Source of the DNA: Gemmatimonadota bacterium
Lineage (GTDB): Bacteria > Gemmatimonadota > Gemmatimonadetes > Gemmatimonadales > GWC2-71-9
Direction of reading: 5' to 3'
DNA: 64,000 nucleotides
NCBI GenBank assembly: GCA_016713435.1
Contig: JADJPD010000010.1
Span: forward strand, 167,040-231,039
Below the pieces are notes generated by a model. The model ran no database searches and was not told the origin of the DNA. It saw only the letters and a list, made by a program, of their open reading frames with translations. Shown here piece by piece: positions 6,203-62,324 of this stretch (the first letter of the stretch is position 1; every line of letters starts with the position of its first letter). The position numbers and the translations under genes are program-made.

Positions 6203-7182
6203 ATGCGCGCCCATCGTCTCCTCCCGCTCGCGCTCCTTTCGCTCGGCGCGGCCGCCTGCGGCAACGCCGGCGAGGATCTCGGCGTGGCGCTCCCCGGCAA
6301 CGGGGCGCTGCAGGCCCAGTTCTTCGTGGACCGCGACTGGAACGGCAGCTTCAGCGCCGGTGACACCACCATCGCGGGCCTCAACGTGTACCTGATCACC
6401 GGCGGCGGGCGGGACACCGTGGCCACCGGCCAGACGGCGGCCACCGGCGCGGTGCTCTTCACCGGCCTGGTGCCCGGCCCCCCACCGTGGCGCTCGACTC
6501 GGTGCTGGTCCTCGGCGACTCCTTCTCCACCACGCTCAACCCAGTGCGCGCCACCGTGGCCAACAGCGGCCAGGCACCCACCATCCTGGGCCGGGTGGGG
6601 TTCCCGCAGCTGACGCTGGCCCAGGCGCGCGCGGCGGCCCCGGGCAAGCGGCTCGTGGTGCTGGCCACCCTCACGGGCGCCCCCTCGAGCTTCAGCGACA
6701 GCACGGCGCACCTCCGTGACGCCTCGGGGAACCTCCGCGTCACCCGCATCGTGGCCACCGCCGGCGGCCCCTTCATCCCCGGCGACATCGTCCGGGTGCT
6801 GGGCCACGCCGCCAGCCGGGGCGGCCAGCCGGTGCTCGACAGCACCCGCGTGGCGCTGGCCGGCCTCGGCACCGGCGCGCCGGTGCCGGACACCCTCACC
6901 ACCGCCGAGGCGGCGGGGGCCAGGGCGGGGGCGCTGGACGCCGGGCTGGTCTACATCCAGGACGCCGAGGTGCTGACGGCCGTGGGGCAGAACGGGGACG
7001 TGGTGGTGACCGTGGACGACGGCAGCGGGCCGGTGGAGATGCGCATCGACAAGATCCTGCAGGCCACCCCGAGCCTCTTCTTTCCGGGTGACAGCGTGAA
7101 GGCCTCAGGCGTCCTCGTCTCCACCGGGGCGGGGAGCTGGGAACTCCGCCTCCGCAGTGCGCAGGACCTGACTATCTTCTAG
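6203..7182 (+). pseudogene. Lipoprotein (beta-sandwich plus OB-like repeats), frame broken in a C6 run at 6478-6483
   Basis: MRAHRLLPLALLSLGAAACGN lipobox in the frame of ORF 5621..6613. The sequence continues sensibly only in ORF 6487..7182 (...TGLVPGP | TVALDSVLVLGDSF...). Confidence 0.65.
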
Positions 7183-7256
7183 CCCGCCGACGGGCCGGCC
7201 GGGGCACCCGCCCCGGGGGGGACCCGTGCGGTGGCAACGGCGTGCGAGGCAACAGC

Positions 7257-7749
7257 ATGGCAACTTCGGCAGTGGCGCGATCCTCCCGATCCGGCGTGGC
7301 CCTCGCGGTCACGGCGCTCCGGGCCCTCGGGATCGTCTTCTTCGTCGTGGCCCTGGCCGACATCCTGACCTCCTGGCTGCCCCCGTTCTTCGGGAAGCCG
7401 GAGTGGGAGCTCGGCGTCTCGGCCGGCTTCTTCGATCGCTTCCCGCTCTTTCGGCCTGGGGCTGGCCATCCTGATCGCGGATGGGGTGGCCCAGGGCCGC
7501 AAGCTCCGGGTGCGGACCCTGGCCGTGCTGGCGGTCCTGGTGGCCGTGACCATGTGGCTGGTTTTCACCCTGTTTGCCACCACCTGGCCCATGAGCCTGC
7601 GGGCGATGGCCGGGAATCCGCCGGCCATGACCGTGATGAAGAAGGCCGGCGCCAAGGCCCTGGTGCAGGCGGCGTTCTACCCGTTTGCCCTGCTCTGGCT
7701 GGCGGGGGCGGCCTGGAAGGCCACCTTGACCCGGCGGCGGCGGGGCTGA
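7257..7749 (+). pseudogene. Small polytopic membrane protein, paralog A of 7933..8433; frame broken near 7449-7453
   Basis: MATSAVARS...LTSWLPPFFGKPEWELGVSAGFFDRFPLF (frame of ORF 7242) continues as GLGLAILIADGVAQGRKLRV... (ORF 7486..7749). Colinear with the intact neighbour (LTWYPAGFGNREWEFGTVSAVFDGLPLFAMGLAL...). Confidence 0.65.
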
Positions 7750-7875
7750 GTGTCCCGGAGGTGTTGTAGCTACACCACGACACCCGCCCGTCATCAGGAC
7801 TTCATGTAGTCGGCACCGGTTTCCTAAGTTGTTGTTTCACAAGGCCTTGACGTCGTGGCACGCGGCGCCGGATTC

Positions 7876-7891
7876 TGGCCTGAACCCTGCA
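7876..7891 (+). promoter_or_regulatory. Candidate sigma-54 (-24/-12) promoter
   Basis: TGGCCTGAACCCTGCA with correct GG-N10-GC spacing. Lies 42 nt upstream of ATG 7933. Confidence 0.45.
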
Positions 7892-7932
7892 ATAATGAGC
7901 GGCGGTCGCACGAGGGCCGCCACGAGGCTTCC

Positions 7933-8433: not shown

Positions 8434-8470
8434 CGCCATAGTTCACCAACTGACGACAAGGACAACCCCA

Positions 8471-9220: not shown

Positions 9221-9242
9221 TCTGACCGTCGGTTGGTGAACT

Positions 9243-9277: not shown

Positions 9278-9326
9278 CCCCCCGCGCCGCTGCCCCACGC
9301 TTCCTCCTTCCGCTAGCTTCCCTGCC

Positions 9327-10229: not shown

Positions 10230-11249
10230 GCCTCACCGTGGCGCCCTTCACGGGCGCGGCCGCCGAGTGGGATGGGTTCGTCAGGCAGCAGGCGGGTTCA
10301 CCCACTTCCACCTGCACGGCTGGAAGGGGATCTACGAGGGGACCGTCGGGCACGAGTGCCTCTACCTGGAGGCGCGGGAGGATGGCGTCCTGCAGGGCGT
10401 GCTGCCGCTGGTGCGGGTGAAGAGCCTGCTCTTTGGCCACTACCTGGTGTCCATGCCCTTCGTGAACTACGGCGGGCCGCTCGGCACCGACGCCGCGGTG
10501 CAGGCGCTGGCCACCTGGGCGGCCGAGCGGGCGCAGGCGGATGGCGTGAAGCTGCTGGAGCTCCGCAGCCGCCGCGAGCTGCCGCTCTCGCTCGCCTGCT
10601 CGCACCGGAAGATCACCGTGGTGCTGGACCTGCCGGGGACCCCCGAGGCGCTGATGAAGAGCTTCGAGTCCAAGCTCCGCAGCCAGGTGCGCCGGCCGGG
10701 GAAGGAGGGCGTGACCTACCGCTTCGGGCCGGACCAGGTGGAGCCGTTCTTCCAGGTCTTTGCACGCCACATGCGGGACCTCGGCACGCCCACGCAGCCC
10801 CGGCGCCTCTTCCAGGCCATCGCCGACACCTTTCCCGACGCGTGGTTCGGGACGGCCTGGCTCAAGGACGAGCCGATCGCCTGCGGGGCGGGGTTCGTGT
10901 GGGGGCGCGAGTTCGAGATGACGTGGGCGTCGTCCCTCTACAGCCACCAGAAGATCGCGCCCAACATGGGGCTCTACTTCGCCTTCATGGAGCGGGCGAT
11001 GGCGGAGCAGCTCACGCTCTTCAACTTCGGCCGCTGCTCGCCGGGGTGGGGACGCACCGCTTCAAGAAGCAGTGGGGGAGCCGGGACGAGCAGCTCTGGT
11101 GGTACCAGGCGGGCGCGGCGGCGGAGGAGGGCGGGGGCACCCCGTCGCCGGACCAGGGCGCCTACAGCTGGGGCCCGCGGGTGTGGCAGAAGCTCCCGCT
11201 GCCGCTGGCCACGGCCATGGGGCCCATGATCGTGCGCGGCATTCCGTGA
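10226..11249 (+). pseudogene. FemAB-family (peptidoglycan-bridge-like) acyl/aminoacyl transferase, PEP-CTERM-locus type; two frame breaks (~10291-10298, ~11041-11050)
   Basis: VSLTVAPFTGAAAEWDGFVRQQAG (ORF 10226) -> FTHFHLHGWKGIYEG...LFNFGRCSPG (ORF 10000..11229 frame) -> VGTHRFKKQWGSRDEQLWWYQ... (ORF 10272..11249 frame). GTGA overlap with the upstream gene. Confidence 0.75.
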
Positions 11250-13594: not shown

Positions 13595-16001
13595 GTGCAG
13601 CGCCTTGTCTTGCTCGCAGTGGGCAGCCTGAGCTGCACCGCCGACCTGCTGAACACCAGCGGTGGCAACCAGCCGCCGCCGGGCGTGCTGGTCGTGGCAC
13701 CGGTGCAGTTCGACCTGAACGCACAGGTTGGCCAGGGAAACCTGGTGCCCATCCAGGTACAAGTCACGGCGGGCACCACCGACGACGTCTCGGGCCTCAC
13801 GCTGGGCAATCCGCAGTTCGTCGGCCCATCCGGGTGGCTCTCTGCCCAGCTCAACGGCACTACGGCGCCCAGCCACACTGACACTGAACCTCGCCAACAC
13901 CTCGTTGGCCGAGGGGTACTACTCAGCCACGATCCCGATCATCTCTGCCAGTTCGGGCAACAGCCCGCAGAACGTCATCGTCACCCTGACGGTCGCGTCG
14001 GCTCCAGTCATCGAGCTGTCCGCGGACACGGCCCACTTCGCGGCGACGTCCGGCGGCTCGAATCCCGCCGCGGTGACGGTCCAAGTGGACAACGGCGGCA
14101 CGGCCACGCTGAACCAGCTCACGGTCCTCTCCACCACCTACTCGCCAGTGGTCGGCACTCCTTGGCTGACGGCCAACCTCGGCGCGGCAACGGCACCCAC
14201 CACCTTGAACTTGTCCGCCGCGGTGGGCGCGCTTACGGCCGGGAGTTACGGTGCCAGGGTGATCCTGCAGGGTGTCGGCGGCGTTCGGGACACGCTCGAC
14301 GTTGGCTTCGACGTCGCCGCGGCACCCGTGCCTCCCCGCATCGCGATGGTGCAGGACTCCGCTGATCTTCACGGCTACGAGCGGAGGGAACGACCCGAAT
14401 TCCCAGGTCGTCAACATCACCAACACCGGTGGCGGCACCCTGAGCGCCCTCAGCCGGACCATCACCTATCAGGCAGGGGGATCCGGGCTGGCTCACCGCG
14501 ACACTCGCAGCACCACGGGACCCACGACGCTGACCTTCGCACCGCAGACCGGCCAGCTTGCCGCCGGGACCTATCGTGCGACGGTGGTGGTGACCGATCC
14601 GGCGTCGGCCAACTCTGACAGCGTACGAGTCCGGTTCACGCTGAGCGCACCGCCGCGCATTGGCGTAAGCCCCGCCACGGTGGCTTTCGCGGCCGCCAGC
14701 GGTGGCGCCAACCCCGGCGCAGCAGCGGTTTCTGTCACCAACACGGGCGGCGGGTCCGTCACGGGTCTGCAACTCGGCACCATTGCTTACGGGGCCGGCC
14801 AGCCGACCAATTGGCTCACGGCCACCCTGAACGGCACCACCGCGCCTGCCACGATCACCTTGCGCGCCACGGTCGGTGCCCTCACGGCGGGCCTGTACAC
14901 TGCGAGCGTGCCCGTCAGCTCGGCACTCGGCATCCCGTCGCAGGTGGTGAACGTCAACTTCACGCTCTCCGGCGGCCAGGGCGCGATCGTCGGCCTGCTC
15001 GGGCTCAACCAGAACGGCTTCACCGACTCCGTCCTGCCCCAGCAGGTCGTGGTCCGGGTCCTTGATGCCAACAGCAACCCCGTGGTGGGGGCCACGGTCG
15101 GCTGGACTCCCGGCCAGGGCGGCAGCATCGTCAACGCCACGACCGTGACGGATAACAACGGCGAAGCCAAGACCTCGTGGCGACTCGGGCCTGCGGCCGG
15201 GCCGCAGACGCTCACGGCGACGTCAGGCGGTCTAACTCCGTATGTCGTCAACGCGGTGGGCAGCAGCGCTAACGGGGGCAACTACCCCGGGGAGCCACCG
15301 GGCTTCACCGTCATCAGCAACCGGCGCTTCGATGCGAAGGTCGAGGACGGCTGGTTGGATCGTGGAGACGCCAACTTCTCGATCGCCACCGACGCTTCCG
15401 CGCCGATCTCGGCGCCCAATGTCGGACAGTCCCTGTTCCCCCAGGGCTTCACCGGAGGCCGCGGGCCGATCAACACCTACCGCGTGATCGGGCAGTACAA
15501 CCGGAAGCAGATGTACCTGTCCTTCTGGTTCAAGCTGTCCCCAACTGGTACGGAGGGGCTACGAACGGGGTGAACAAGGTGCTGCATCTGTGGATCAACG
15601 GCGGGAGCGTGGTGGTCTTCTCGGCTCAGGGCCAGACCACGAACTCGATCGCGCCCCAGATGCGGCTCCAGAACATCGAGGCTGACGCTCGAGGCATCTC
15701 CTTCAACCTGAACCCGAACCTCTTGCCCACGGCACGCCTGATCCGTGGCCAGTGGCACCGGGTCGAGATCCTCCTCAAGTCCAACACTCCGGGCGTTCAG
15801 GACGGAGAGGTGGACTGGTGGTTGGATGGGGTGAAGATCGCCGCCTACACCGATGTCGGCTTCGTTGCCTCGGGCAACGTGACGCCGGGCGCCGTGAACT
15901 GGCAGCAGGTCTCCTGGAATCCGACGTACGGCGGGCCCGCGGACGTGGTGCCGGCCAATCAGTACATGCAGATCGACCAGTTCTACATCAGCGGCAAGTA
16001 G
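13595..16001 (+). pseudogene. Large lipoprotein: 4 tandem ~108-aa Ig-like repeats + Big-like domain + ConA-like domain (paralog 2); at least 3 frame breaks (13868-13871, ~14352-14362, C4 run 15539-15542)
   Basis: VQRLVLLAVGSLSCT lipobox. Pieces in ORFs 13595, 13728, 14272 and 15570 join colinearly. The C-terminus ...FKLS|PNWYGGATNGVNKVLHLWINGGSVVVFSAQG...WHRVEILLKSNTPGVQDGEVDWWLDG matches paralogs 1 and 3. Confidence 0.7.
13682..14970 (+). repeat. Four tandem ~324-nt coding repeats (Ig-like/BACON-like modules)
   Basis: Each unit: ..F.A.SGG.NP....V.V.N.GGG.L..L......Y......WL(T/S)A.L.G(T/A)TAP.T(L/I).L......L.AG.Y.A.V.V..........V.F(T/D)(L/V). Unit boundaries ~13682, 13995, 14316, 14644, 14970. 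Confidence 0.75.
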
Positions 16002-16014: not shown

Positions 16015-16919
16015 TTACAGGGCCCGAATCCAACTTCTCGACATGACGGGCCGTCCTCGTCCAGGCACCACGTCCTGAGATGAGGGCGGCCCGCAAGCCG
16101 ACCACCCCACGCCACACTGCATAGCCGGGGGAGTCGGAGGAGGGCGCTCACTGTAGCGCCGGGTTCCGGGGTGAGAGCGGAGCGCGAGGGCCGCGTACAG
16201 CGCTGGCTGGAGGGCCCCGGTTGAGAAGAGCGCGGCACTCAGCTCCCAGCCTTCGGTGATGGTCTCCACCCGCCACGGCTCACGGCGGAGCAGCGTGGTA
16301 CCGAGCACCGTGCCATCGCCGGTGAGCGGGACGTTGAGCCCCGCGTGCACCTTGAGGGGCATGGCGATGCCGTAGCGGGAACGGGTGAGCAGGCCGGCCA
16401 GGCGTGTCAGCCAGTTTTCGAACTCGTTGCTCATGCCATCGTAGCTCTGGACGGCCTTGTCCTCGAGCGGGGCGAAGCGCATCAGCTCCCGGCTGTACTG
16501 GGAATCGAGGATGGTGTCGGCGTCCACGATGACCACGGCGGCCCACCGCTCGAGGGGCAGTTCTCGAGCGCCCACTTGATCGCGTGGCCCTTCCCGCGAT
16601 CCGTGGCCGAACTACGCTCCAGCACCACGGCTCCGGCCTCGCGCGCGAGCTCCGCAGTACGGTCGCTGCAGTTGTCGGCGATGACCGCCACGGTCAGCAG
16701 CTCAGGCGGGTAGTCCTGCGCCAGCAGGGAGCGCACGGCGCGCTGGACGAGCATCTCCTCGTCGTGGGCCGGGACGATGAACACGAGCGGCTGGGGCTCC
16801 TGCCGCGGAGGGTCGGGACGCCGTCGGCCAAGGCCAGCCAGCATCATCGCAAAGTCCGCGACCGCGGGCAGCGCGACGACCATCGAGAGCACCAGGGCGA
16901 CCAGGCCAAGAACGAGCAT
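16015..16919 (-). pseudogene. Family-2 glycosyltransferase (membrane-anchored), frame break ~16561 and apparently truncated/degenerate C-terminus
   Basis: MLVLGLVALVLSMVV...PLVFIVPAHDEE...VIADNCSDRT...DRGKGHAIKWALE (ORF 16482..17099) -> LPLERWAAVVIVDADT...ITEGWELS (ORF 16015..16575). No clear QxxRW or C-terminal TM helices before it abuts the convergent gene end at 16001. Confidence 0.65.
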
Positions 16920-18135: not shown

Positions 18136-19579
18136 GTGCAGCCCCTGAACGCGAAACTGGTCGGCATTCTCAAGCCGACGGCGGACGGATACCGGAACAT
18201 CGTTGCGGCGCTGATGCTCATTTCCATCAGCCGCCTGCACCAGCATTTCAAGTTCCTGAATCCGCTGCGCCCGGCCATGACGCTGGTGCTGCTTGCTGCG
18301 TTCTACGCGTTTGCCAACCCGAAGATGCTGTCGACCGCGCTGGCAACCAAGACGTGGGCTGCGCGCATGATCGCGGCCATCGGGATCATGGCCTGCATCT
18401 CGACGCCGTTCGGGATCTCCATGGGGAACTCGGGGACGTTTATCCTGTACGAGTACTCCAAGACCATCCTGTTCGCCTTTCTGGTGCTCTTCGCCATCCG
18501 CCAGGCCAGCGACCTCTTCCAGTTGGTCTGGGCCGTCGTGCTCGCCGGGGGGGGTCTGGCCTACCTCTCGCTCTTCGTCTTCAAGATCCGTGCGGCGACC
18601 AGCGACGGCTTCGCCCGGATCCAGAACGCCTACAGTTACGACTCGAACGACCTGGGATTCGTCTGCGTTCTCTGCCTCGTCCTCGCCTTGCTGGCCTGGC
18701 AGACCTCCGGTCCACGAGGCAAGACGGTCGCGACCGTGATCATGGCGGGACTCGGTGGTGCCATCGCCCGGACGGGTTCGCGCGGCGCGTTCCTCGCGCT
18801 GGTGGTGGTCGGCGCCGCCATGCTGGTGCTCGTGCGCGGTGTCTCGGTCGGGAAGAAAGTGGCCTTCGTCGGCGTGGTGATGGTGGGGCTGCTGTGGTTC
18901 GCTCCGGCGGGGTACTGGGAGCAGATGAACACCATGAGCAACCCGACGGAGGACTACAACTGGACCTCGGAGACAGGCCGCAAAGCCGTGTTCAAGCGCG
19001 GCATGGCGTACATGATGCAGTTCCCCATCGCCGGGCTCGGGATCGACAACTTCGAGCGCGCCGAGGGTATGCTAAGTGAGCGCGCCAAGGCGCAGGCGCT
19101 GGACCCGTCGTTGCCCGGCATCAAGTGGTCCGCTGCCCACAACTCCTTCCTGCAGGCCGGGGCGGAGATGGGTATCCCCGGCCTTGTCATCATGTGCATC
19201 ATGGTGTTCTCGCCGATCTTCATCTGTGCACGGCTGCGCAAGCAGATGAAGGGCTGGGCCGAGGGCGATGCCGAGCAGCGCTTCCTGTACTTCACTGCCC
19301 TCTACATGCCGGTGGCCTTCATTGGCTTTGGCGTGGGCGGGTTCTTCGTCTCGTTCGCGTACCTCGACCCCCATATACGTGCTGGTGGCGTTCATCGGCG
19401 GGCTTCAGCTTTCCTTTGAAGCTCGCCTGCGCAAGGAAGCGGCTTTGGGTACTGATGGCGCGGTCACCGCACAGGCCGCGTCGCAGTCAGCGCGGCGATA
19501 CCGGGGTGGTCTGCCCCCGGCAGGACCGCGTCAGCCGTCTCCGCTCCCGCCGCCAGTGATGTACCCGCGCGCGCAATGA
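18136..19579 (+). pseudogene. O-antigen ligase/polymerase-like (Wzy_C-type) membrane protein; frame break in C5 run 19368-19372
   Basis: ORF 18136..19419 (about 10 TM; ...RTGSRGAFLALVVV..., GLGIDNF..., AHNSFLQAGAEMGIPGL) continues as ...FAYLDP|IYVLVAFIGGLQLSFEARLRKE in ORF 19268..19579. Start codon uncertain (GTG 18136). Confidence 0.75.
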
Positions 19580-20492
19580 TGGTCCGAGCGACAACGAAGG
19601 CGGTGATGGAACGCCTGCTCGCTCAGGCCGGGCCCGCCGCCCTCTCGCGGCGGGCCTTCCGTCGCCGGGGGCTGGTGCTCGCCTACCACAACATCCTCCC
19701 CGCCGGCCAGGCCGCCCCCGCCGACCACTCGCTGCACCTGGCCGAGGCCACCTTCCGCGCCCAGCTCGACCTGCTGGAGCAGCACGCCCACATCGTCCCG
19801 CTCGCCGACTTGCTCGCCGGCAAGCTCATCGGCGAGGGCCCGTACGTGGCCCTCACCTTCGACGATGCCTATCGCGGCGCCGTCACGGTGGGCCTCCGCG
19901 AGCTGGCGCACCGCGGCCACCCCGCCACGCTCTTCGTGACGCCGGGCTGCCCCGGCGGCGGCGCCTTCTGGTGGGACCGCATCAGCGACGGGAAGACCGG
20001 CGGCCTCCCGCCGCCTTCCGCGCCCGCGCGCTCACCGAGGGCCGCGGTCGCGGCATCGACGTGCTCGGCCTCGCCGCGCAGGCCGGCCTCTCGGTGCTCG
20101 ACGTCCCGGCCCACGCGCTCCCCGCCAGCCTCGAGGAGCTGACCCAGGCCGCCCAGGCCCCGGGCCTGGTGCTCGCCGCCCACACCTGGACCCATCCCAA
20201 CCTCGCCGCGCTGCACGGCGCCGAGTTCGAGGAGGAGCTGCTGCGCCCCCTCACCTGGCTGCACCAGCGCTTCGACCGGGTGATGCCATGGATTGCCTAT
20301 CCCTACGGCCTCACCTCCCCCGAGGGCGAGGCCGCCGTGGAGCGGGCGGGCTACGAGGCCGGCTTCCTGGTGGCTGGCGGCTGGCTCCCCGAGGGCGGCT
20401 GGCCGCGGCTCCGCATCCCGCGCCTCAACATCCCCGCCGGCCTCAGCGAGGCGGGCTTCATCGTCCGGATCGCCGGCCTCATGGGCGCATGA
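19576..20492 (+). pseudogene. Polysaccharide deacetylase family protein; frame break ~20000-20012
   Basis: ORF 19576..20142 (LVLAYHNI..., VALTFDDAYRG..., PATLFV) -> ORF 19971..20492 (...AAHTWTHPNLA..., IAYPYGL...). ATGA overlap with the upstream gene. Confidence 0.75.
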
Positions 20493-22449: not shown

Positions 22450-23565
22450 GCCGCCGGCTCCGGGTGCTGCACGTCATCCAGAACCTCCACTACGGCGGCA
22501 TGGAGCGGCTCTTCGCCGACATCGTGCGGCTGCTCGATCCGGCGGAGTTCGAGTCGCACGTGATGGTGCTCGGCTTTTTGGGGCACTTCGGCGAGGGGCT
22601 CGATAAGTACGCCACCATCCACCACGCCGTGAAGATGTCGCGCCTTTCGATGGTGCGGCCGGCCGGGCTCGCGGCGCAGATCCGCGCCATCGCGCCGGAC
22701 GTGGTGCACACCCACCAGGGCTGCTGGTACAAGGTGTCGCTCGCGGCGCGGATGGCGGGGGTGCCGTGGATCGTGCATACGGAGCATGGGCGGCAGAAGC
22801 CGGACCCGTTCATTGCGCGGACGGTGGCGCGGCTGGCGTCGGGGCGCACCCACGTGGTGGCGAGCGTGTCGGGCGCGCTGGCGGAGCACCTGAAGACGGC
22901 GGTGGGCGTGGACGGGCGCGCGGATCCGGGTGCTCACCAACGGCGTGGACACCGAGCTCTACCAGCCGGGCGGCGATCCCTGTCCCATCCGGAAGGAACT
23001 CGGCATCGCCGACGACACCCCGATCATCGGCAGCATCGGCCGGCTGGAGCCCATCAAGGGCTATGACGTGGTGGTGGACGCGTGGCTCAAGCTCCGCGAG
23101 ACGTGGCAGCGCGGCCCGCTCCCGGTGCTGGTGGTGGCCGGCGACGGCTCCGCGCGCGCCGATCTCGACGCGCGCCTGGCCGCCGCCAACGCCGGCCCCG
23201 GCGTCCGCCTCCTCGGCTGGCGGAGCGACATGACGGCGCTGCACGCCGCCTTCTCCCTCTTCACCATGGGCTCCCGGAGCGAGGGCACCTCGGTCAGCCT
23301 GCTCGAGGCCATGAGCGCGGGGCTCTGCCCCGTTGTCACCAACGTGGGGGGGAACGCCGCGGTGCTGGGCCCCGCGCTGCAGCACCGCCTGGTGCCCCCC
23401 GTGAACCCCGACGCCCTGGCCGCCGCCTGGACCGACGCCCTGACCAACGACGCCCGCCGCGCCGCCGACGCCCGCGCCGCGCGGGAGCGGGTGCTGGCCG
23501 AGTTCAGCGTGGGGGCGATGGTGCGGGGGTACGCGGCCATATATAAGGAGTGCCCGGCGCGATAG
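22446..23565 (+). pseudogene. GT4-family (GT-B) glycosyltransferase; frame break ~22915-22925
   Basis: ORF 22446..23066 (RVLHVIQNLHYGGMERL...) -> ORF 22930..23565 (RIRVLTNGVDTELY...GRLEPIKGYD...SEGTSVSLLEAMSAGLCPV, E-x7-E). Confidence 0.8.
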
Positions 23566-26118: not shown

Positions 26119-27045
26119 CGAATGTACTGGGCCGTCTGGACCTTCCCGGTGCCACCGTAGGTGGGATTGAGCTGAACCGCCGTCCAGCGCTTGCCGGTCC
26201 GTGCGGCCCCGCTCCAGGTCAGGTTCGAACGCTGCATGCAGAGCGTGCCATTCACCCACATCTTGGCCACGCCGTTGGCACTGCCGCTCGAATTCTGGGT
26301 CAGGAGCACCTCGACCCGGTCCCAGCGATTCCTGGCCGCCGCAGCGCACCCCAGATTGAAGCTGATCACGCCGCCGTTCTTCGTGCTCATGTTCTGCAGG
26401 CGCAACTGATGGGAGAGCGAGCCCGTGCCCACCCCGTACAGAGACGGGACCGCCTGGGAGGCGCCCGACGCGGACGCATCCGACGTACCCCAGATGTGGA
26501 ACAGCTTCTGGACTCCGCTCGTCGAACCGTAGTAGTTGGCCGGAACCCAGACACAGTATCGCAGGTACAGCTGGGTGAACGTCCCCTGCTTCAGAAACCA
26601 CGACCCGCTGCTCCCCACCGCCATGTGTTCTGGGCCGCTGCCCTGCGTGAATCCTGCGGGACGGTCACTTGAAGCACGCTGGTGGAACCACACCCCGCAG
26701 TCGCATCAACGATCACCTTCCCCGTGTTGCTTAAGCCTGGTAGCGGTACCACCCACTGAAGGTCCCGCCGGTGGTCGGTGTGGCCAGGGAGAATCCAGTC
26801 CAGTCATTGCTGGTCAAAAGCTTCATGCCAGCGGGCTCAAGGTAGGTCATGGAGGAGAACAGAGACTCTTGGGGCAGCTGCTCTGCGGGCCCCAGCGTCC
26901 GGCCGGGATCCGAACACCCGGCGAGATTTGTGAGACCGAGTGCGAGCATCAGGGCCGTGAGAGAGCGGCTAGGAACGCGGAAGGAGGGGGAGACACCCAC
27001 GGGGAACTCCTGCGTCAGCGGTGGCTGCAGCCGACTTGGGTACAA
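26088..27045 (-). pseudogene. Lipoprotein with ConA-like (polysaccharide-lyase-like) domain, paralog 3; at least 2 frame breaks (~26655-26660, ~26730-26740)
   Basis: ORF 26731..27045 (...LTALMLALGLTNLAGCSD lipobox...) -> third frame (SNTGKVIVDATAGCGSTSVLQVTVP) -> ORF 26088..26693 (AGFTQGSGP...VPANYYGSTSGVQKLFHIW...WDRVEVLLTQNSSGSANGVAKMWVNG). The 3' end overlaps the methyltransferase by 31 nt. Confidence 0.6.
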
Positions 27046-28749: not shown

Positions 28750-30094
28750 TTACGTCCTCCTCGCCGCACCGAGGCTCCGGACGCGGTCCACGAGTTGGGC
28801 CATCTGTTGCTCCGCCGTCAGGGCGGCTAGGCGAGGGTCGTCGATGGCGACCTGGCTGCGGCCCTCGCGCAGGCTGGCCTCGAGGAAGGCCAGCGTGGCC
28901 GAGTCGTCCGGGCGAGTGGCCAGGTGATGGCCGGGGAGAGGCCGAAGGAGAGAGGCGACCTCGCCTTCTTCGTCCGCATACGCGAGCACCGGACGGCCGG
29001 AGCCAGGCACTCGTACACCTTGTTCGGGACTTGGTCGGGCTGCTCCTGGGCGAGCACGAGGAGCAGGTGACTCTCGCTCATCAGGCGGAGGGCGGTGTCG
29101 CGGGGACCCCAGTCGTCCAGGTGCAGCATCCCCCCGAGCCCAAGGCTCGCCGCAAGGGTGGCCAGATCGTCCCCCGCGAATGCCCGGCACATCCCGACGA
29201 AGTGGACCTCCACGTCCGCCGGGCCGAGCCCGAGACGCTTCACGGCAGCGGCGAGGGTGCGCAGGAACTGGCGAGGATCCCGCCCGTAACTGCAGGTTCC
29301 CGCATGCATGATCCGGAAGGGGCGCGGTGGCAGGGGTGGGGCGGCGGTCAATCCGTCAATGCCATTCCGAATCATCACGCACTTGTCCTGCAGTGCTGCC
29401 GGGAGCTTCCGGCTCATCAGCCGGTCGATGCCGCTCGACACGCTTACGACGAGGTCCGCCGCTTCGAGGCACTTGCGTTCGAGACGAGCGTCGAGCCAAT
29501 CGGTCAACTGGCTCCGCACATGGGCGGGTTTCTGCGGGTTGTCGACCCACGGATCGCGGAACTCAAGGACCAGCGGGATGTCCGCGGCCCGCTTGGTTCG
29601 ACGTGCGGCGAGGTGGGGAGAGAGCGGCGGGGCGCTGGAGTAGATGACCGAAGGCCGCTCCGCTGCCAGCCGTCGCGCCAGTTGGACCGCCGGGCGGATG
29701 AATCCTGGACATCACGCGGGAGCCAGAGGAGCGAGAAGAAGTATCGCTTCAGTGAGGAGGTCCGCACGGGGCCGGGCGAGGCGTCAGCCGCCGCCGACGC
29801 ACTGGGCGCGTCCCCAGCAGGGGCCTCGGCGACCTGGCCGCGGAGGCGGCGACGGAGGTGATTCACCCACTCCCGGGGGCTGCGGTCGGGGGGAACCAGG
29901 TGCCGCGTGAGGTTAGGGCCATCCGCGATGGTCGCGGCCGCGCCCCCAGCGCTGGGAATCGTGAGTACGTGGACATCGTGGCCGGCCGCAGCCAATGCCT
30001 TGGCCACCTTGGCCGTGCGGATGGCCCCCACGGCCGGAGACGGTGGGTAATGGTAGGCCAGCAGGATGACGCGTCGAAGGGTGTTGGCGACCAT
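28750..30094 (-). pseudogene. GT-B fold (GT4-like) glycosyltransferase, tandem paralog a; 2 frame breaks (~29703, ~29003-29005)
   Basis: MVANTLRRVILLAYHYPPSPAVGAIRTAKV...LWLPRDVQ (ORF 29504..30127) -> FIRPAVQLARRL...EFRDPWVDNP...NKVYECL (ORF 28827..29519 frame) -> GSGRPVLAYADEEGE... (ORF 28750..29190). Colinear with 30310..31607. Confidence 0.7.
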
Positions 30095-30309: not shown

Positions 30310-31607
30310 TCACATCTGGAGGGCGTGGACGAGGCGCCGCATCTGGGCCGTGGTGGTCCACTCCTCCAGGCGGGCGGTGGCGGGCTCGGGGAGCCGCCGC
30401 CCTGGAGCGAGGCCGAGGGCGAGTTCGAGTCCGTTGGCCGCGTCGGCCGGCAGACCCGTCGTCACCAAGGCATGGCCGCCTACCTCCCGAAGCATGCGCG
30501 CCGACTCTCCTTCCTCGTCGACGAACGCCAGGATGGGTCGTCGGCTCCCCAGGTACTCATAGAGTTTGTTCGGGACCTGGTCGGGCTGACGCTGGGCGAG
30601 GAGGAGCAGGACGTCTGCCTCGTTCACCAAACGTTGGCAGGCGTCATGGGGGAGCCAGTCCTCGAACTGCACGAATGCCGAAATCCCGGCGTCGCGCACC
30701 AGAGCCTCGATCGAACCGCCCGCGTACTCACGGCACTTCCCGACCATCAGCACCTGCAGCCGGGCGGGGGTGAGGCCGTGGCGCCGGATCACCTCGGCCA
30801 AGCCCAGCACGAACGGCCGGGGATCACGCGCACCGTAGCAAGAGCCGACGTGCACGACTCTCTGGGCGGTGATGGGTCGGGGGCCAGGCAGGGCCGGGGC
30901 CAAGGCCTCGATCCCGTTGCGGATGAGGATGACCCGCTCCTGCTCCCGGGGCGGGAGCTTGCGACGGAGTATCCGGTCAATGCCTTCTGATGCCACGACC
31001 ACACGTTCGGCCAGGCGGAGCGTCTCTCGCTCGAGCCAGCGCTCGACCTTGTCGCTGAGTCGACTGCGATGAATGGCGGTCTTCCACGGATTGTCGGTCC
31101 ACGGATCACGGAACTCGGCGATCCACCGGACACGGCGCGCTGCCAGCATGAGGCCGGTGAGGTGGACCGAGAACGGTGGAGCGCTGGTGATGACAAGGTC
31201 CGGGCCACGGCCGCCGTGGCTGCGGCGGGCGGCGGCGTAGGCGGGATAGATGAAGCCCTGCAGGTCGTCAGGCAGCCAGAGCAGGGAAAAGATCCAGCGC
31301 TTCCAGTTCGGGACGATACTCGGGGTGGCGGAACTCGAAGTGGAGGCCGCGGCCGGCGGCGCGGATCGGCGCGCTCGCGTGCGCCAGCGAACCCAGAGCT
31401 GCCGTGGGCTTGGCCAGGCAATCACGCGCTCCACCAGGATGCCGCTCGCCGTCACGAGGCGAGGACAGGGCGCTTCGGGGACCTGCGCGGCGATGACATG
31501 GACGTCGTGGTCAGCGGCGCGCAGCGCCTCGGCGTCCTTCTCGGCACGGAACCCGCCGACCGCGCGGGGGCTGGAGGATAGTGGTACGAAATCAAGGCGA
31601 TCCGCAT
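30310..31607 (-). pseudogene. GT-B fold (GT4-like) glycosyltransferase, tandem paralog b; frame break in G5/C5 run 31566-31570
   Basis: MRIALISYHYPPAPA (ORF 31452..31700 frame, ATG 31607) -> VGGFRAEKDAEALRAADHDVHVIA...EFRDPWTDNPW...NKLYEYLGSRRPILAFVDEEGES... (C-terminal part of ORF 30310..32979). Confidence 0.75.
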
Positions 31608-37643: not shown

Positions 37644-38566
37644 GTGACGGCGCCGGCCCTGGCCGTGGTGGTGCCGTCGGTGAACGGCTGGGCGCACCTC
37701 GAGGGGTGCCTCGCGGCGCTGGCGGCGGAGGGGCGGACGGTGCCGCTCGAGGTGCTGGTGGCGGACCGGCTGGGAGAGGAACTGCGGGCGCGGGTGCGGG
37801 CGGCCTTTCCCGCGGTACGCATCCTGCCTGCCTCCCCGGATACCACCATCCCCGACCTGCGCGCGCTGGCCTTCCAGGCGGCGACGGCGCCGGCGGTGGC
37901 GGTCATCGAGGATCATGTGCTGGTGCCGCCCGGGTGGGCGGGCCGGCTGCTGCAGGCGCTGGCGGCGGGGGAGGACGTGGCCGGGGGCGCGGTGGAGAAT
38001 GCCGCCACCGAGACACTGGTGGACCGGGCCGCGTTCCTGTGCGAGTACCATCAGCTGCTGCCGCCCCTCGTGGCCGGCGAGGTGGCGGGGCTGGCCGGCA
38101 ACAACGTGGTCTATCGCCGCACGGTGCTGCTGCGGGCCGAGGCGGCGTGGCGGGCGGGGCGGTGGGAGGACCACCTGCAGGCCGAGTTGCGGCAGGGGGT
38201 GCGGCTCCACCAGCATCCCGAGATCGTGGTGGGCCACCGGATGCCGTTCACGGTGGGCGGGTACCTGGCGCAGCGCTTCCTCTATTCCCGGGCGTATGCG
38301 GGGCTCCGCGCCGCGGGGATGGGCCGGGCGGGGCGGGTGGCCTACGGGGCCGCCGCGCTGGCGCTTAAGCGGTGCTGCTGCTGCGGATCGTGCGGACGCT
38401 GCTGGCCAAGGGCGGGCACGGGAAGGACGTGGTGCTGGGCCTGCCGCTGTTCGTGCTGTTCACGGCGGCGTGGGGGCTCGGTGAGGTGGCTGGCGCCTGG
38501 TTCGGCGACGGTGGCGCGTTGCGACGGATACGCTACGGATCCCTCTGGACCCGAAACGGAGTCTCG
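37644..38566 (+). pseudogene. Family-2 (GT-A) glycosyltransferase; frame break ~38366-38371; no stop codon before the next gene
   Basis: VTAPALAVVVPSVNGWAHLEGCLAAL...AVIEDHVLVPPGW...GNNVVYRR... (ORF 37617 frame) -> VLLLLRIVRTLLAKG...LFVLFTAAWGLGEVAG (ORF 38372 frame). That frame reads straight into MSAAPAS at 38567. Confidence 0.65.
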
Positions 38567-40063: not shown

Positions 40064-41238
40064 ATGCGCATCGGGGTGGACGCCACCTGCTGGGCGAACG
40101 GGCGCGGCTACGGCCGCTTCACCCGCTCGCTGCTGGCGGAGATGGCGGCGCTCTCCCCGGACGACGAGTTCATCTGCTTCCTCGACCCGGTGGCCGCGCA
40201 GGGCTTCGACCTGGCGGGGCCCAACGTGCGCCCGGTGATCGTGCCCATGGGCGTGGCGCCCACCGCGGCCGCCGCGGCCGACGGGTACCGGGCGCCGCTC
40301 GACATGCTGCGGCTCACGCGCGCGGTGTGGCGGGAGCGGCCGGACGTGTTCTTCTCGCCGTCGGTCTACACCTATTTCCCGCTCCCCCCGGGGCAGCGGG
40401 CCGTGGTCACCGTGCACGACGCCATCGCCGAGCGCTTCCCCGAGCTGACGCTGCCGAGCCCCCGGGCCCGCCTGTTCTGGCGGCTCAAGGTGGGGCTGGC
40501 GCTCCGTCAGGCGCGGCTGGTGCTCACGGTGTCGGACTTCGCGGCGGGGAGATCGCGGAGGTGCTCGGCATCCAGAAGGGGCGGATCCGGGTCACCAGCG
40601 AGGCGCCGGCGGAGGCGTACGCGCCGAGCGAGGACAAGAAGGCGATCGCGGCGCTGGCGGCGCGGGTGGGGGTGCCGGCCGGGGCGCGGTGGTTCACGTA
40701 CGTGGGCGGCTTCAACCCGCACAAGCACGTGGATGCCATCGTGCGGGCGCACGCGGCCGTGGCCAAGGAGATGAGCGCCCCGCCGCACCTGCTGCTGGTG
40801 GGGACCATCGACAAGGACGTCTTCCACGGCGACCAGGCCAAGATCCGCCGCGCCATCAGTGAGGCGGGGACGGAGTCGCTGGTGCACTGGACGGGCTTCC
40901 TGCCCGACGGCGAGCTCCGGCACCTGCACAGCGGCGCCGTGGCGCTGCTCCTCCCCTCGGCGTGCGAGGGCTTCGGGCTGCCGGCGGTGGAGGCCGCGGC
41001 CTGCGGCACGCCGGTGGTGGCCACCACGGCGAGCCCGCTGCCGCAGCTGCTCCAGGGCGGCGGGATCTTCGTGGCCCCGGGGGACGAGCCCGCGCTCGAG
41101 GCCGCCCTCCGGACGCTCCTGACCGACGACCTGGGCCGCGCGCGCATGGCGCGCATTGCGCTCGAGCGGGCGCGGGCGCTGTCGTGGCGGCGCGGCGCGG
41201 AGGCGGCGATGGCCGCGCTGCACGAGGCGGCGGCGTGA
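40064..41238 (+). pseudogene. GT4-family glycosyltransferase; frame break in G4 run 40546-40549
   Basis: MRIGVDATCWANGRGYGRFTR...LTVSDFAA (ORF 40064) -> EIAEVLGI...FTYVGGFNPHKH...SACEGFGLPAVEAAACGTPVV (ORF 38977..41238 frame). Confidence 0.8.
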
Positions 41239-42565: not shown

Positions 42566-43541
42566 ATGAAGGTGTTCATCACCGGCGGCGCCGGGTTCAT
42601 CGGTTCCCACCTGGCCGAGCGGCTGCTCGCCCGGGGCGACAAGGTGCTCATCCTGGACGACCTCTCGACGGGGACGATGGACAACATCGACCACCTCGTG
42701 GGGCGGCCCGGCTTCGAGTACCGGATCGGCACCGCGCTCGACCTCCCGCTCGTCACCGAGTGCGTGGACCGCTGCGACGTGACCGTCCACCTGGCGGCGG
42801 CGGTGGGCGTCAAGCTGATCGTGGAGCGGCCGGTCCATACCATTGAGACCAACGTGGGCTGCACCGAGACGGTGCTCGAGGCGGCGGCCAAGAAGCAGAA
42901 GCTGACGCTCGTGGCCAGCACCTCCGAAGTGTACGGCAAGAGCGCCCGCATCCCCTTCGGCGAGGAGGACGACCTCCAGCTCGGCCCCACCAGCCACAGC
43001 CGCTGGGCCTACGCCTGCAGCAAGGCGCTGGACGAGTGGCTGGCGCTGGCCTACCTGCGCGAGAAGCAGGTGCCGGTGATCCTGTGCCGCTTCTTCAACA
43101 CGGTGGGCCCGCGGCAGACGGGGCGCTACGGCATGGTGCTGCCCAACTTCGCCGCGCAGGCGCTGGCCGGCGAGCCGATCACGGTGTACGGCACCGGCAC
43201 CCAGTCGCGCTGCTTCGGCCACGTGCAGGACGCGGTGGAGAGCATCCTCCGCCTCCTCGCCACGCCGGCGGCGGTGGGGCAGGTGTTCAACGTGGGGAAT
43301 GACGAAGAGGTGAGCATCCTGCGCCTGGCGGAGCTGGTGAAGGAGGCGGCGGGCTCGAGCTCGGAGATCCGGCTCATCCCCTACAGCGAGGCGTATCCCA
43401 TCGGGTTCGAGGACATGCAGCGGCGGGTGCCCGACGTGCGGAAGCTCGAGAAGGCCATCGGCTTCCGGCCGCGGACGCCGCTGGCGAAGATCATCGCGGA
43501 CGTCGTCGCGGACCAGCGCGCGCGTGGCCGCGCGGGCGTAG
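42566..43541 (+). pseudogene. NAD-dependent nucleotide-sugar epimerase/dehydratase (SDR); 3' end uncertain (in-frame stop missing, likely indel ~43510-43540)
   Basis: MKVFITGGAGFIGSHL..., STSEVYG, YACSKALDE (YxxxK), FNTVGPRQ. As assembled the frame runs on to 43990 across the next gene. A TAG at 43539 sits in the adjacent frame. Confidence 0.75.
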
Positions 43542-48920: not shown

Positions 48921-48997
48921 GGTAGCACCACGGCCCCGGACCCCGCCCGGGTCCCGGGGACGAGAATCGCACCCGTCTGGAGGCGTCTCCGGGGGGG

Positions 48998-49013
48998 TGG
49001 AACGCCTCTTGCC
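48998..49013 (+). promoter_or_regulatory. Candidate sigma-54 (-24/-12) promoter
   Basis: TGGAACGCCTCTTGCC (one mismatch). Lies 94 nt upstream of ATG 49107. A perfect 10-bp-stem hairpin (49055..49079) lies in the predicted leader. Confidence 0.55.
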
Positions 49014-49297: not shown

Positions 49298-50198
49298 ATG
49301 CCTGCCTCGGTGGTGGTGGCGTCTTGCCGGGACCCGAAGCTCCTCGAGCGGCTGCTCGCGGCGCTCGCGCCCCTGGCGGAGCGCCACGGGGTGGAGCGGG
49401 TGGTGGCGCGGGCCGGGACGGCGGCGGAGGTGGCCGCGCTCGAGGCGCGGCATCCCGGGGTCCGGTTTGTCCGGGCGGCGCCCGGCACCGGCGTCCCCGC
49501 GCTCCGCGGCCTCGGCATGCAGGCCGCCACGGGGACCCGGTGGCGGTCACCGAGGACCACCTGGTCCCCGCGCCTGACTGGCTGGACCGGCTGGTGCCCG
49601 CCCTCGGGCCGGGGATCGGGGCGGCCGGCGGCGGCATGGCGAACGGCGAGGGCCTCGGGCTCCTCGCATGGGCGGCCTACTACTCGGATTACGGCTTCTA
49701 CAGCAAGGCGCGGCGGGACCCGCCGGGGACCATTCCCCTGCTCACCGCCGCCAACATCGTCTATCCCCGGCGGGTGGTGGCCGACGTGGCCGCCTGGTCG
49801 GTCGCCGGGGAGTGGGAAAACGTCCTGCACGACCGGCTCCGCGCCCAGGGGAGCGGCTGGCCTTCGTGCCGGAGGCGGTGGTGTACCACGTGCAGCGGTA
49901 CGGGTTCGCGGAGTTCTGCCGGGACCGCTACGAGCACGGGCTCGAGTACGCCCGGAGCCGCCTGGCGGAGCACCCGGAGTCCAACCGCTGGCTGCTGCTG
50001 CTGGCGGCTCCCCTGCTGGCGGTGCTCCTGTTCCTGCGGATTGCCCGGGCCAGTTGGCGGGAGCGGCCGGCCATCTTCCTGGCCGCCAGCCCGCTCACCC
50101 TGCTGCTGCTGGGCTGGTGGGCCATCGGCGAGGCGGTGGGGTACTGGCGGGGGCCGGCCCGGGCGCTGGAGGCGGGGATGGGGGCGCGGGCGGCCTGA
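49298..50198 (+). pseudogene. GT-A-like glycosyltransferase (paralog of 37644..); 2 frame breaks in G4 runs (49531-49534, 49848-49851)
   Basis: MPASVVVASCRDPKLLERLLAAL...GMQAATG (ORF 49043 frame) -> DPVAVTEDHLVPAPDWLDRL...LHDRLRAQG (ORF 49324 frame) -> ERLAFVPEAVVYHVQ... plus C-terminal TM (ORF 49668..50198). Confidence 0.65.
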
Positions 50199-56541: not shown

Positions 56542-56543
56542 CC

Positions 56544-60473: not shown

Positions 60474-60474
60474 C

Positions 60475-60729
60475 ATGCCCGACGTGATCCCGCAGGTGAA
60501 GCAGTACATCCTGGACCACCACCTCCCGGGTGAGAACCCGGCCAACCTCACGCTGACGACGCCGCTCGTCTCGGGGGGCATCCTCGACTCGCTGGCCACG
60601 CTGGACCTGGTGGCGTTCCTCGAGGGGCGCTTCGGCATCGAGCTCGAGGCGCACGAGGTGGACCGCGACCGGCTGGACACGCTCGAGAAGATCGCCGAGC
60701 TGGTGCAGGGCAAGCTGGCGCGGGTGTAG
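60475..60729 (+). CDS. Acyl/peptidyl carrier protein
   Basis: In ORF 60358..60729. MPDVIPQVKQYILDHHL...GGILDSLATLDLVAFLE (DSL phosphopantetheine site). 84 aa. Confidence 0.85.
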   Translation: MPDVIPQVKQYILDHHLPGENPANLTLTTPLVSGGILDSLATLDLVAFLEGRFGIELEAHEVDRDRLDTLEKIAELVQGKLARV

Positions 60730-60730
60730 G

Positions 60731-62324
60731 GTGACGACCGGGCTGCTGCACCCCGGCGTCCTGGCCGCCGCGCACCGCCATCCCGAGCGGGTGGCGGCCA
60801 CGGAGGCGGGCATGGAACCGATCCGCTACCGCGCGCTCGAGGCGCTGAGTGCCCGGGTGCGCGACTGGCTGGTGGCCCAGGGCGTGCGCCCCGGCGACCG
60901 GGTGGGGCTCTACCTGCCCAAGACCATCGACGCGGTGGCCGCGCTGCTCGGCGTGCTCCGCGCGGGGGCGGCGTACGTGCCGGTGGACCCGGGGAGCCCG
61001 CCGTGGCGCGCGGCGTACATCCTGAACGACTGCGCGGTGCGCGCCGCGATCGTGGACCAGGCGCTGCTCGCGGCGCTGGCGCCGGAACTGGCCACGCTCG
61101 GCGCGGCGCCGGCGCTGCTCCAGCTCGACGGGCCGGGGGGCGGGGTGGCGCTCGACGCGGCGCTGGCCCGCGCCGGCGCCCCGGCGGCGGCGGATGCCAC
61201 GGGCCTCACGCCCGCGTCGCTGGCGTACATCCTCTACACCTCGGGCTCCACGGGGAAGCCGAAGGGCGTGACGATCAGCCACGAGGCGGCGCTCGCGTTC
61301 GTGGACTGGTGCGCGGCGCGCTTCCAGCCGCGGCCCGAGGACCGCTTCTCCTCGCACGCGCCCTTCCACTTTGACCTCTCGGTGCTGGACCTGTACGTGC
61401 CGCTGCACCATGGCGCGTCGGTGACGCTCATCGGGGAGGACCTGGGGAAGGACCCGCTCAAGCTGGCGCAGCTCATCGCGGCGGAGCGGCTCACCGTCTG
61501 GTACTCGACGCCGTCCATCCTCAACATGCTGGTGCAGTACGGCCACCTGGACCGCTACGATCTCGAGGCGCTCCGGCTGGTGCTCTTCGCGGGCGAGGTG
61601 TTCCCGCTGCCGCAGTTCCGCGCGCTCAAGGCGCTGGTGCCGCATCCCGGCTACCACAACCTCTACGGCCCCACCGAGACCAACGTCTGCACCGCCTACG
61701 AGGTCCCGGCGGTGGTGCCGGCGGACCGGGTGGACCCGTTCCCGATCGGCGAGGTGTGCGCGCACTACCGGGGGCGGGTGGTGGATCCCGACGGGCGGGA
61801 CGTGGCGCCGGGCGCGGAGGGCGAGCTGGTCATCGCCGGCCCGGGGGTGATGAGCGGCTACTGGAACCTCCCCGAGCGGAACGCCGCCGCCTTCCTCGTG
61901 GATGATGCGGGCACGCGGTGGTATCGTACAGGCGACCTGGTGGTGGACGAGGGGGATGGCTGCCTGGTCTTCCACGGCCGCGCCGACCGGATGGTGAAGC
62001 GGCGCGGCTACCGCATCGAGCTCGGGCGAGATCGAGGCGGGGCTGGCCCGGCACGACGCGGTGCGCGAGGTGGCGGTGGTGGCCAGCGCGGACCCGGCTG
62101 CCGGCGTCCGGATCACGGCGTTCCTGAGTGCCCGCGCCGGGGTGACGGCGCCGTCGCTCATCGCGCTCAAGCAGTACGCGGTCGAGGCCCTGCCGCGCTA
62201 CATGGCGCCCGATGCCTATCGCTGGCTCGACGCCATCCCGCGCACCTCCACCGACAAGACCGACTACCAGCGGCTCAAGCAGCTCGCCGATCCCGCCCCG
62301 GGAGGTGTGCCGGCGGGCCGTTGA
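60731..62324 (+). pseudogene. Stand-alone NRPS-type adenylation enzyme (DltA-like AMP-dependent ligase); frame break ~62021-62027
   Basis: LAYILYTSGSTGKPKGV, NLYGPTETNV, YRTGDL, GRADRMVKRRGYRIELG (ORF 60731 frame) -> EIEAGLARHDAVREVAVV...IPRTSTDKTDY (ORF 62061..62324). Confidence 0.8.

Follow-up and report, generated by a model that had tools for sequence, protein, structure and literature searches.

The 64,000-nt stretch analysed here (the window) corresponds to positions 167,040 to 231,039 of contig JADJPD010000010.1 of a Gemmatimonadota bacterium (assembly GCA_016713435.1) and is part of a 465,407-nt contig of a metagenome-assembled genome (MAG). It has a G+C content of 72% and carries a large exopolysaccharide cluster of the XrtA/PEP-CTERM type, as recognised by a hidden Markov model (HMM) of reading frame based on the G+C content of third codon positions (GC3) together with Pfam and NCBIfam scans. 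Nineteen genes of the window are interrupted by about 38 frame-disrupting insertions or deletions (indels) of 1–2 nt, and these frame breaks are the subject of the present analysis. The product of 9327–10226 matches TIGR03006 (XrtA-system polysaccharide deacetylase) with 322 bits for a cut-off of 276, and that of 8471–9220 is named a PEP-CTERM sorting-domain protein by NCBI; the Pfam and NCBIfam scans recognised no exosortase gene within the window. The cluster comprises many glycosyltransferases (GT) of families GT2, GT4 and GT39, a Wzx-type flippase, a Wzy-like polymerase, a UDP-glucose dehydrogenase (UGDH) and an epimerase. Downstream of this glycosyltransferase part, genes for a sulfatase and a radical-SAM/SPASM enzyme are accompanied by those for CysNC, a CysQ-CysC fusion and CysD. 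The next genes encode an acyl-CoA dehydrogenase, an 871-aa protein bearing an SGNH domain, an acyl carrier protein and an acyl-AMP ligase. Related loci found by a genome scan belong without exception to Gemmatimonadota, the best identity being at least 70% among the matches listed, and a plasmid search yielded nothing relevant.

Frame breaks were tested in four ways, namely with the GC3 frame HMM, by the splitting of Pfam domains between frames, by protein-to-DNA alignment and by DNA-DNA alignment. At the protein level, the open reading frames (ORFs) of 160 related loci, designated below by L numbers, were compared with the window by tblastn and by a frameshift-aware protein-to-DNA aligner. 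The positions at which the HMM changes frame agree with those at which colinear parts of a Pfam domain fall into different frames. A first-pass annotation of the sequence had listed breaks in 19 genes, and all 19 are borne out, at the places it gave or a few nt away; its tally of at least 27 was sound as to the existence of the breaks and too low as to their number, the additional ones lying in the genes starting at 13595 and 7257 and in those for UGDH and GT39. Once repaired, the 19 frames are free of nonsense codons, and neither large deletions nor insertion elements occur in these genes.

The closest independent sequences are contigs of the same species (L161–163 and L172–176), which share 97.2–98.6% nucleotide identity with the window and cover 16.1 kb of it. 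The Logan contigs concerned (runs SRR13076506, SRR13076562-64 and SRR14271333-34) span positions 3889–10312, 39527–43539 and 46104–51799, and their length at a short k-mer size suggests that they derive from accurate short reads. Compared with them, the window shows about 2% substitutions and 11 indel events, all of 1–2 nt, at 6476, 7215, 7412, 7417, 7452, 10294, 40546, 43516, 48998, 49535 and 49852. All 11 are absent from the same-species contigs, in which the affected genes are intact. Nine of the 11 fall in coding sequence, which simply reflects the coding density, and two in intergenic runs, and not a single one is a multiple of 3. Because of selection, natural indels between strains are expected to be skewed toward intergenic DNA and multiples of 3, and no such filter is apparent here.

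Site by site, the SdrD_B-like gene at 6203–7182 (+ strand) bears one indel, a 1-nt deletion shortening G3 to G2 beside a C6 run (6474..6483) according to DNA alignment with L168 and L172 (97.4%), and is intact in relatives with 325–326 aa. The intergenic run at 7215..7221 is G7 in the window and G6 in relatives (L172, L174). Two small tandem HpsJ-like genes follow at 7257–8433 (Pfam PF28006; NCBIfam NF050013 'cyanoexosortase A-associated', below cut-off), directly upstream of the PEP-CTERM protein gene 8471–9220. The first of them (7257–7749, +) carries three indels within 7412..7454, +1 at 7412, −1 at 7417 and +1 at 7452 (L172, L174, L168, L169), of which 7412/7417 form a compensated pair; its counterpart in relatives is intact and encodes 163 aa. 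In the FemAB-like acyltransferase gene 10226–11246 (+), two G runs have each lost one base: G4 became G3 at 10292..10297 (L168, L169, L173 at 97.8%, and protein-level alignment) and G5 became G4 at 11041..11048 (L168, and a frame switch against 14 orthologues). The single break of the GT4 gene 40064–41238 (+) is a G5 reduced to G4 at 40546..40549, where L161–L163 (98.3–98.6%) carry G5 and the same-species contigs encode an intact 391-aa protein (P0001). The first-pass annotation had described the epimerase gene 42566–~43545 (+) as having lost its stop, which is explained by a 2-nt deletion near its 3' end converting (GC)5 into (GC)4 at position 43516 (43514..43524, alignment with L161); the gene is intact in the relative and encodes 325 aa. 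Further downstream, the intergenic run 48991..48998 is G7 in the window and G9 in the relative (L176). The GT2-like gene 49298–50198 (+) has two breaks, both G5 to G4 (49531..49535 and 49848..49852), and L176 (98.6%) holds an intact 300-aa gene.

More distant relatives at 89–94% identity (L164–L170), among them MEGAHIT and SPAdes assemblies, are intact at about 20 further sites and allow the indels to be placed to the base. They hold unbroken versions of the flippase, UGDH, GT39, GT2 37644, GT4 22446, FemAB-like (341 aa) and deacetylase genes, and no lesion of the window is shared with any relative in the DNA alignments. The most heavily affected gene, GT39/PMT_2 at 35195–36852 (+), has six indels within 35213..36361 (+1 at 35215; −1 at 35255, 36192, 36270, 36275 and 36357), and its intact 553-aa form is found in L165, L166 and L167; the truncated product of the window, of 334 aa, has an exact match (P0261). 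The flippase gene at ~31630–33190 (−), listed from ~31608, has two (31640..32806): a 2-nt deletion at 32804 beside a C5 run, and a 1-nt deletion at 31642, four codons ahead of the stop, which fuses the ORF to the next gene. Positions 2–65 and 71–292 of Pfam Polysacc_synt_3 consequently lie in different frames, and the L165/L166 gene is intact with 507 aa. Three 1-nt insertions at 34526, 33953 and 33927 (33925..34528) affect the UGDH gene 33139–34908 (−), which additionally shows compensated pairs, 5 nt apart, at 34289/34293 and 33912/33917; the N, central and C domains recognised by Pfam alternate between two frames, and L165/L166 have an intact gene of 578 aa. As the three +1 insertions sum to +3 and the wrong-frame middle is free of stops, a 606-aa ORF survives at 33139–34959 (−), so that a gene caller would report a seemingly intact UGDH with a garbled central domain. 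Single breaks were found in the GT2 gene 37644–38560 (+; 1-nt deletion at 38364..38368; L164 and L167, intact in the latter with 307 aa), in the GT4 gene 22446–23565 (+; 1-nt insertion, G2 to G3, at 22912..22921, which places the N- and C-terminal GT4 domains in different frames; intact in L170 with 372 aa) and in the polysaccharide deacetylase gene 19576–20492 (+; 1-nt deletion at 20012..20018, splitting Polysacc_deac_1 into positions 6–40 and 49–123; 66 orthologues and L170 DNA).

The remaining breaks were located by protein-level comparison. The Big_1/polysaccharide-lyase-like gene 13595–16001 (+, 857 aa) contains five indels within 13865..15548, +1 near 13870, 14360 and 14482 and −1 near 14508 and 15540 (C4 at 15539–15542), as placed by frameshift-aware alignment with L002_2583_5153 (59% identity) and L001; the stretch between 14485 and 14508 is out of frame, which concerns the seven residues GWLTATL. 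In the GT2 gene 16015–17100 (−), 1-nt deletions at ~16564 and ~16130–16145 (16128..16566) leave positions 2–85 and 89–198 of Pfam Glyco_tranf_2_3 in different frames, and 15 orthologues switch frame at 16558–64. The Wzy-like polymerase gene 18136–19579 (+) has an extra C in the C5 run 19368..19372 near its 3' end (tblastn junction 19370/19371), giving a truncated product of 427 aa, annotated by the NCBI pipeline PGAP as MBK8005202.1, for 480–494 aa in relatives. Two 1-nt deletions were found in the polysaccharide-lyase-like gene 26088–~27100 (−; ~26661 and ~26732, within 26655..26736) by frameshift-aware alignment to three orthologues at 26–34% identity, and this pair is the weakest-supported in the list. 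Two further ones occur in the GT4-like gene 28750–30100 (−; ~29002 and ~29709, within 28996..29711; L023 and L024 orthologues). The GT4-like gene 30310–31610 (−) has lost one base at the G5 run 31566..31570, at its N-terminus, where alignment with L034 and L024 joins ISYHYPP to PRAVGG. Finally, the AMP-dependent ligase gene 60731–62324 (+) carries a 1-nt insertion at 62020..62028 that separates AMP-binding and AMP-binding_C into different frames (tblastn junction 62026–28).

Part of this series lies in a compositionally distinct segment. Between 12000 and 20000 the G+C content drops to 65–68%, compared with 72–75%; the Wzy-like polymerase has no same-species relative among 5.8 billion proteins (best match 84%), and a metagenome scan with this protein returned no relative. 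The regions on either side, by contrast, are matched by relatives sharing 97–98% nucleotide identity. The segment is probably strain-specific, horizontally exchanged and serotype-like, and since Wzy is devoid of a same-species match it was checked at the protein level only.

Several other signals were discarded. An apparent stop at 13552 precedes the true start and is not a lesion, a gene boundary explains the frame change at 25258, and that at 28143–28192 separates two hexapeptide acyltransferase genes annotated separately by NCBI (MBK8005211 and MBK8005212). A signal at 26038 is gone in the L170 alignment, and those at 4524/4586 and 43573/43592 are effects of low-identity or upstream-junk alignment. 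The first-pass annotation had also described 1–6200, 44303–49290 and 50370–62020 as free of breaks, and every test agrees, with zero frame switches; DNA alignments without a coding indel are available there for L168/L172 (1–6200), L176 (46104–48054 and 50370–51799) and L164 (51799–55256).

Seven of the 11 same-species events are changes in G-run length and one is a (GC)n change, and eight correspond to bases missing from the window for three insertions. Sereika et al. (2022, PMC9262707) describe homopolymer indels that need short-read polishing as a recognised weakness of Nanopore R9.4.1 assemblies, and the excess of homopolymer changes and deletions in the same-species set fits this behaviour. 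The short runs singled out by the first-pass annotation proved right or adjacent to the lesion: the G4 runs of the window at 40546–49, 49531–34 and 49848–51 correspond to G5 in the same-species contigs, the C5 at 19368–72 holds an extra C, the base lost at 6476 is a G beside the C6 run, and two bases are lost at 32804 beside a C5. The homopolymer-error pattern that it had proposed holds for 7 of the 11 same-species events. Homopolymers by themselves do not give a complete model, however, since run-length changes make up only about a third of the whole set of DNA-resolved indels. Many sites resolved only against the 89–94% relatives lie outside runs (7452, 20016, 36270, 36275, 36357 and 38366), and some adjoin multi-base mismatches.

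Two side observations concern sequence context. Run-length errors are found mostly in G runs of the + strand (about 11, including 6476, 10294, 11043, 31568, 35255, 40546, 48998, 49535 and 49852) and in only about three C runs, as counted by eye, which hints at a strand-asymmetric, read-direction-dependent error. Furthermore, at 35255, 36192, 36357 and 38366 the relatives L165–L167 read GCCGG(C/G), and the window has one base fewer and an additional A or T, as at 38366, where GCCGGCG in a relative corresponds to T-TAAGCG in the window. A Nanopore miscall linked to GCCGGC methylation may be involved and is only suggestive: gaps affect 7 of 115 GCCGGC sites and 11 of 471 other GC palindromes, a 2.7 times difference that is not significant, and the motif is abundant (169 sites in the window) and evenly spread.

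These properties bear on whether the frames could be switched biologically, be it by programmed frameshifting or by phase variation at contingency tracts, of which polysaccharide loci are well-known targets. Some of the breaks do fall in G runs. However, the coding runs concerned measure 2–6 nt, when tracts mutating at useful rates have about 7 or more, and the longer runs involved (G6/G7 at 7215 and G9/G7 at 48998) are exclusively intergenic. The sites are moreover scattered in gene bodies, with up to 6 per gene and many outside any repeat, no conserved slippery-site context accompanies them, and at these positions the frames of relatives are plainly intact. We consider the chance of such frame switching to be virtually negligible.

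The deposited proteins give indications on how the sequence was produced. Twelve ORFs of the window match exactly proteins within the series MBK8005191–MBK8005232, entitled 'MAG: ... [Gemmatimonadetes bacterium]', the matched proteins bearing the locus tags IPK12_15090, IPK12_15105 and IPK12_15150. Exact matches include frameshift-truncated products complete with their out-of-frame tails. Indeed, MBK8005217.1 (334 aa), which was found via the 90%-identity cluster of the reconstructed GT39 protein, is identical to the truncated N-terminal GT39 fragment of the window, out-of-frame tail included. This entry ('glycosyltransferase family 39 protein', 334 of ~553 aa, window 35195–36199) stands in NCBI nr as an ordinary protein, and so does MBK8005202.1 ('O-antigen ligase family protein', window 18136–19419), whose 427 aa end in a false tail. 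Sister proteins (MBK6420839, MBK6778015, MBK7925234 and MBK9067651) are encoded on JADJ/JADK assemblies with MBK6–MBK9 accessions, and one such assembly, JADJUT (largest contig 2,192,378 nt), figures among the MAGs of Singleton et al. (2021, PMC8012365; Supplementary Data 3). That study describes Nanopore R9.4.1 sequencing, CANU assembly, polishing with Racon, two rounds of medaka and a single Illumina Racon round, and its table gives a coverage of about 8–18x for two Gemmatimonadales MAGs. By virtue of its accession block and large contig, and not of its own record, the MAG of the window very probably belongs to this Nanopore activated-sludge batch.

The breaks are unevenly distributed, as the first-pass annotation had pointed out: 33 of 36 fall in the 59.5% of the window between 6.2 and 44.3 kb (binomial P=2e-5), a stretch of about 38 kb with approximately one 1–2-nt indel per kb. 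Composition, which it had put forward beside coverage as a possible cause, does not account for this, since runs of at least 4 nt occur at 13.5/kb inside the block and 14.3/kb outside, and GC content is unrelated. Conservation was likewise discarded, identity to relatives being similar in the clean and broken parts. The likely cause is locally poor coverage or polishing, possibly in connection with haplotype structure. A 25,215-nt contig encodes intact GT39 (MBK8005446, 549 aa), methyltransferase (MBK8005456, 280 aa) and ATP-grasp (MBK8005460, 490 aa) proteins, which share 91%, ~86% and ~90% identity, respectively, with the window products, in an order reversed relative to the window (20.5–37 kb). 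As its accessions are only about 230 higher, this contig probably belongs to the same bin and probably represents a second strain haplotype of the central island kept separate by the assembler. A second haplotype in the same MAG, if confirmed, would imply that the bin is heterogeneous in strains or contains duplication.

Such a haplotype opens a different artefactual route, by which two co-occurring strains (2–10% divergent) would have been mixed during consensus building and Racon polishing, giving a chimeric, locally garbled sequence instead of one that merely suffers from low coverage. The neighbouring accessions of the 25-kb contig and its intact copies at 86–91% identity agree with this, as do the several indels that adjoin multi-base mismatches (e.g. 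38366) and the tendency of indels to form tight clusters (4 of 32 gaps of at most 50 nt, P=0.045). Nevertheless, in the same-species alignments mismatches close to indels (up to 10 nt away) are no more than twice as dense as the background (4.2% vs 2.2% elsewhere, P=0.14), so that local garbling is not significant; the shared bin of both contigs is deduced from accession order only, and breaks occur also at 6–20 and 37–44 kb, where no counterpart on the 25-kb contig was seen. We regard strain mixing as possible, if somewhat doubtful.

The first-pass annotation had alternatively suggested that part of the locus is genuinely decaying while the 3'-phosphoadenosine 5'-phosphosulfate (PAPS) and acylation modules stay under selection. 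In such a recent pseudogenisation, the exopolysaccharide island would have been switched off by real slippage frameshifts and the PAPS/acylation genes would remain functional. The confinement of most breaks to one 38-kb block could be read in this way, real slippage likewise prefers short runs, and the seemingly intact second copy of part of the region, apparently in the same bin, could in principle act as a functional paralogue. However, measured on the repaired frames, the ratio of nonsynonymous to synonymous substitution rates (dN/dS) is 0.00–0.24 for broken genes vs 0.08–0.45 for intact neighbours (epimerase 0.00; GT4 40064 0.12; flippase 0.13; GT39 0.21–0.22; UGDH 0.24). Had the six indels of GT39 been neutral, dozens of unconstrained substitutions should accompany them, and genes hit 3–6 times keep a dN/dS of 0.12–0.24, which would require an indel-to-substitution ratio far above neutral. 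In addition, 38 frameshifts stand against zero nonsense codons, large deletions or insertion sequences, none of the lesions is found in any relative, and intergenic runs differ in length in a similar manner (7215 and 48998). The flanks of the window are syntenic with relatives, and the locus is therefore the orthologous one and not a decaying spare copy. Furthermore, a dead polymer pathway would strip the supposedly selected sulfation and acylation genes of their substrate. With low dN/dS, unshared lesions and indels as the only class of lesion, nothing was found in favour of decay around conserved PAPS and acylation modules, and we hold it to be very improbable; a very recent and simultaneous inactivation of the genes is an unlikely, uneconomical reading. 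Very improbable as well is a partly biological origin, in which a low-abundance sludge strain would be losing the sulfated/acylated island through a burst of slippage, or in which the population would be heterogeneous in its G runs, its conspecifics being intact.

It is, by contrast, highly probable from these comparisons that the frame breaks are residual consensus errors of a Nanopore-based metagenome assembly and not mutations in the organism, and an artefactual origin at large, the mixed-strain variant included, is close to certain. What was observed directly is the identity of the source record, the error-like properties of the indels and the fact that each gene tested is intact in independent assemblies. 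An assembly error, the other explanation offered by the first-pass annotation, is favoured by the probable Nanopore batch of origin, intact same-species contigs, indels blind to frame, absence of other lesions in the repaired frames and low dN/dS. According to the scenario that we propose, CANU would have assembled low-coverage Nanopore reads and polishing would have been light, with Racon, medaka applied twice and Racon once more on Illumina reads. Enough accurate reads would yield a clean consensus, but in the strain-variable XrtA/PEP-CTERM island (6.2–44.3 kb) they would have been too few, being split with, or lost to, the second strain haplotype on the 25-kb contig. The version in the window would then be thinly covered and poorly polished, and indels would remain.

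Several points weigh against this explanation. The sequencing technology of the MAG is inferred from its accession block and large contig, and the case for an artefact is built on sequence comparison and not on reads or coverage. The closest independent contigs (97–98.6%) come from other strains, which cannot prove that the genes of this strain are intact. The sharp, 8-fold contrast between blocks in the density of breaks is explained neither by homopolymer density nor by divergence from relatives, both being the same inside and outside the block, and about two thirds of the DNA-resolved indels are not simple run-length changes.

Downstream of the broken block, the neighbouring genes show features of their own. 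The sulfatase (46207–48042) and the radical-SAM/SPASM enzyme (50370–51539) sit beside the PAPS genes, in the combination usual for a sulfatase and its anaerobic maturase. At the corresponding position, L081 and L164 have neither the sulfatase and radical-SAM genes nor the GT2-like 49298 gene, and this module is thus variable. Two APS-kinase domains are present, one fused to CysN (51673–53592) and the other to a CysQ-like inositol-phosphatase domain (54328–55645). The match of the former is partial (profile positions 3–102 of 152) and that of the latter full, and the domain fused to CysN may be degenerate, with a regulatory role. The 871-aa protein encoded at 57858–60473, called 'MBOAT' in the first-pass annotation, is not recognised as such by Pfam or NCBIfam; a weak C-terminal SGNH/GDSL-type domain is its sole match, and its large N-terminal part is unmatched.

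Any inference on the product of the XrtA exopolysaccharide cluster should regard the 19 broken genes as intact, among them those for glycosyltransferases including GT39, the flippase, the Wzy polymerase, UGDH, the epimerase and the acyl-AMP ligase. NCBI nr already holds truncated or chimeric products of these genes as ordinary proteins, and residual errors of hybrid-polished MAGs can concentrate in strain-variable islands, where genome-wide quality scores would hide them. The frame breaks themselves bring no new biology, and their value is that of a warning for annotation.

Compared with known systems, the window resembles phase-variable surface-polysaccharide loci in the G-tract length changes inside glycosyltransferase genes, and differs from them in that its tracts are too short, its sites too many per gene, remote from 5' ends and often outside repeats. 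With pseudogene-rich loci decaying under reductive or niche-restricted evolution it has in common the frameshifting of many neighbouring genes of one pathway; unlike them, it has no nonsense mutations, deletions or insertion elements, its dN/dS is not relaxed, its lesions are unshared and its genes are hit several times without a matching substitution load. Many of its sites are not homopolymers, in contrast with the R9.4.1 error model, and the 8-fold concentration of errors in one 38-kb block departs from any uniform per-homopolymer rate. The remaining properties are nevertheless those of residual R9.4.1 indels as described in PMC9262707 and PMC8012365: they are of 1–2 nt, they split ORFs and, at least in the same-species set, they are biased toward deletions and often located in G/C runs or short repeats. 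Like such indels, those of the window are missing from conspecific assemblies that probably derive from short reads, and occur in what is very probably a long-read MAG batch of low coverage with a single round of Illumina polishing.

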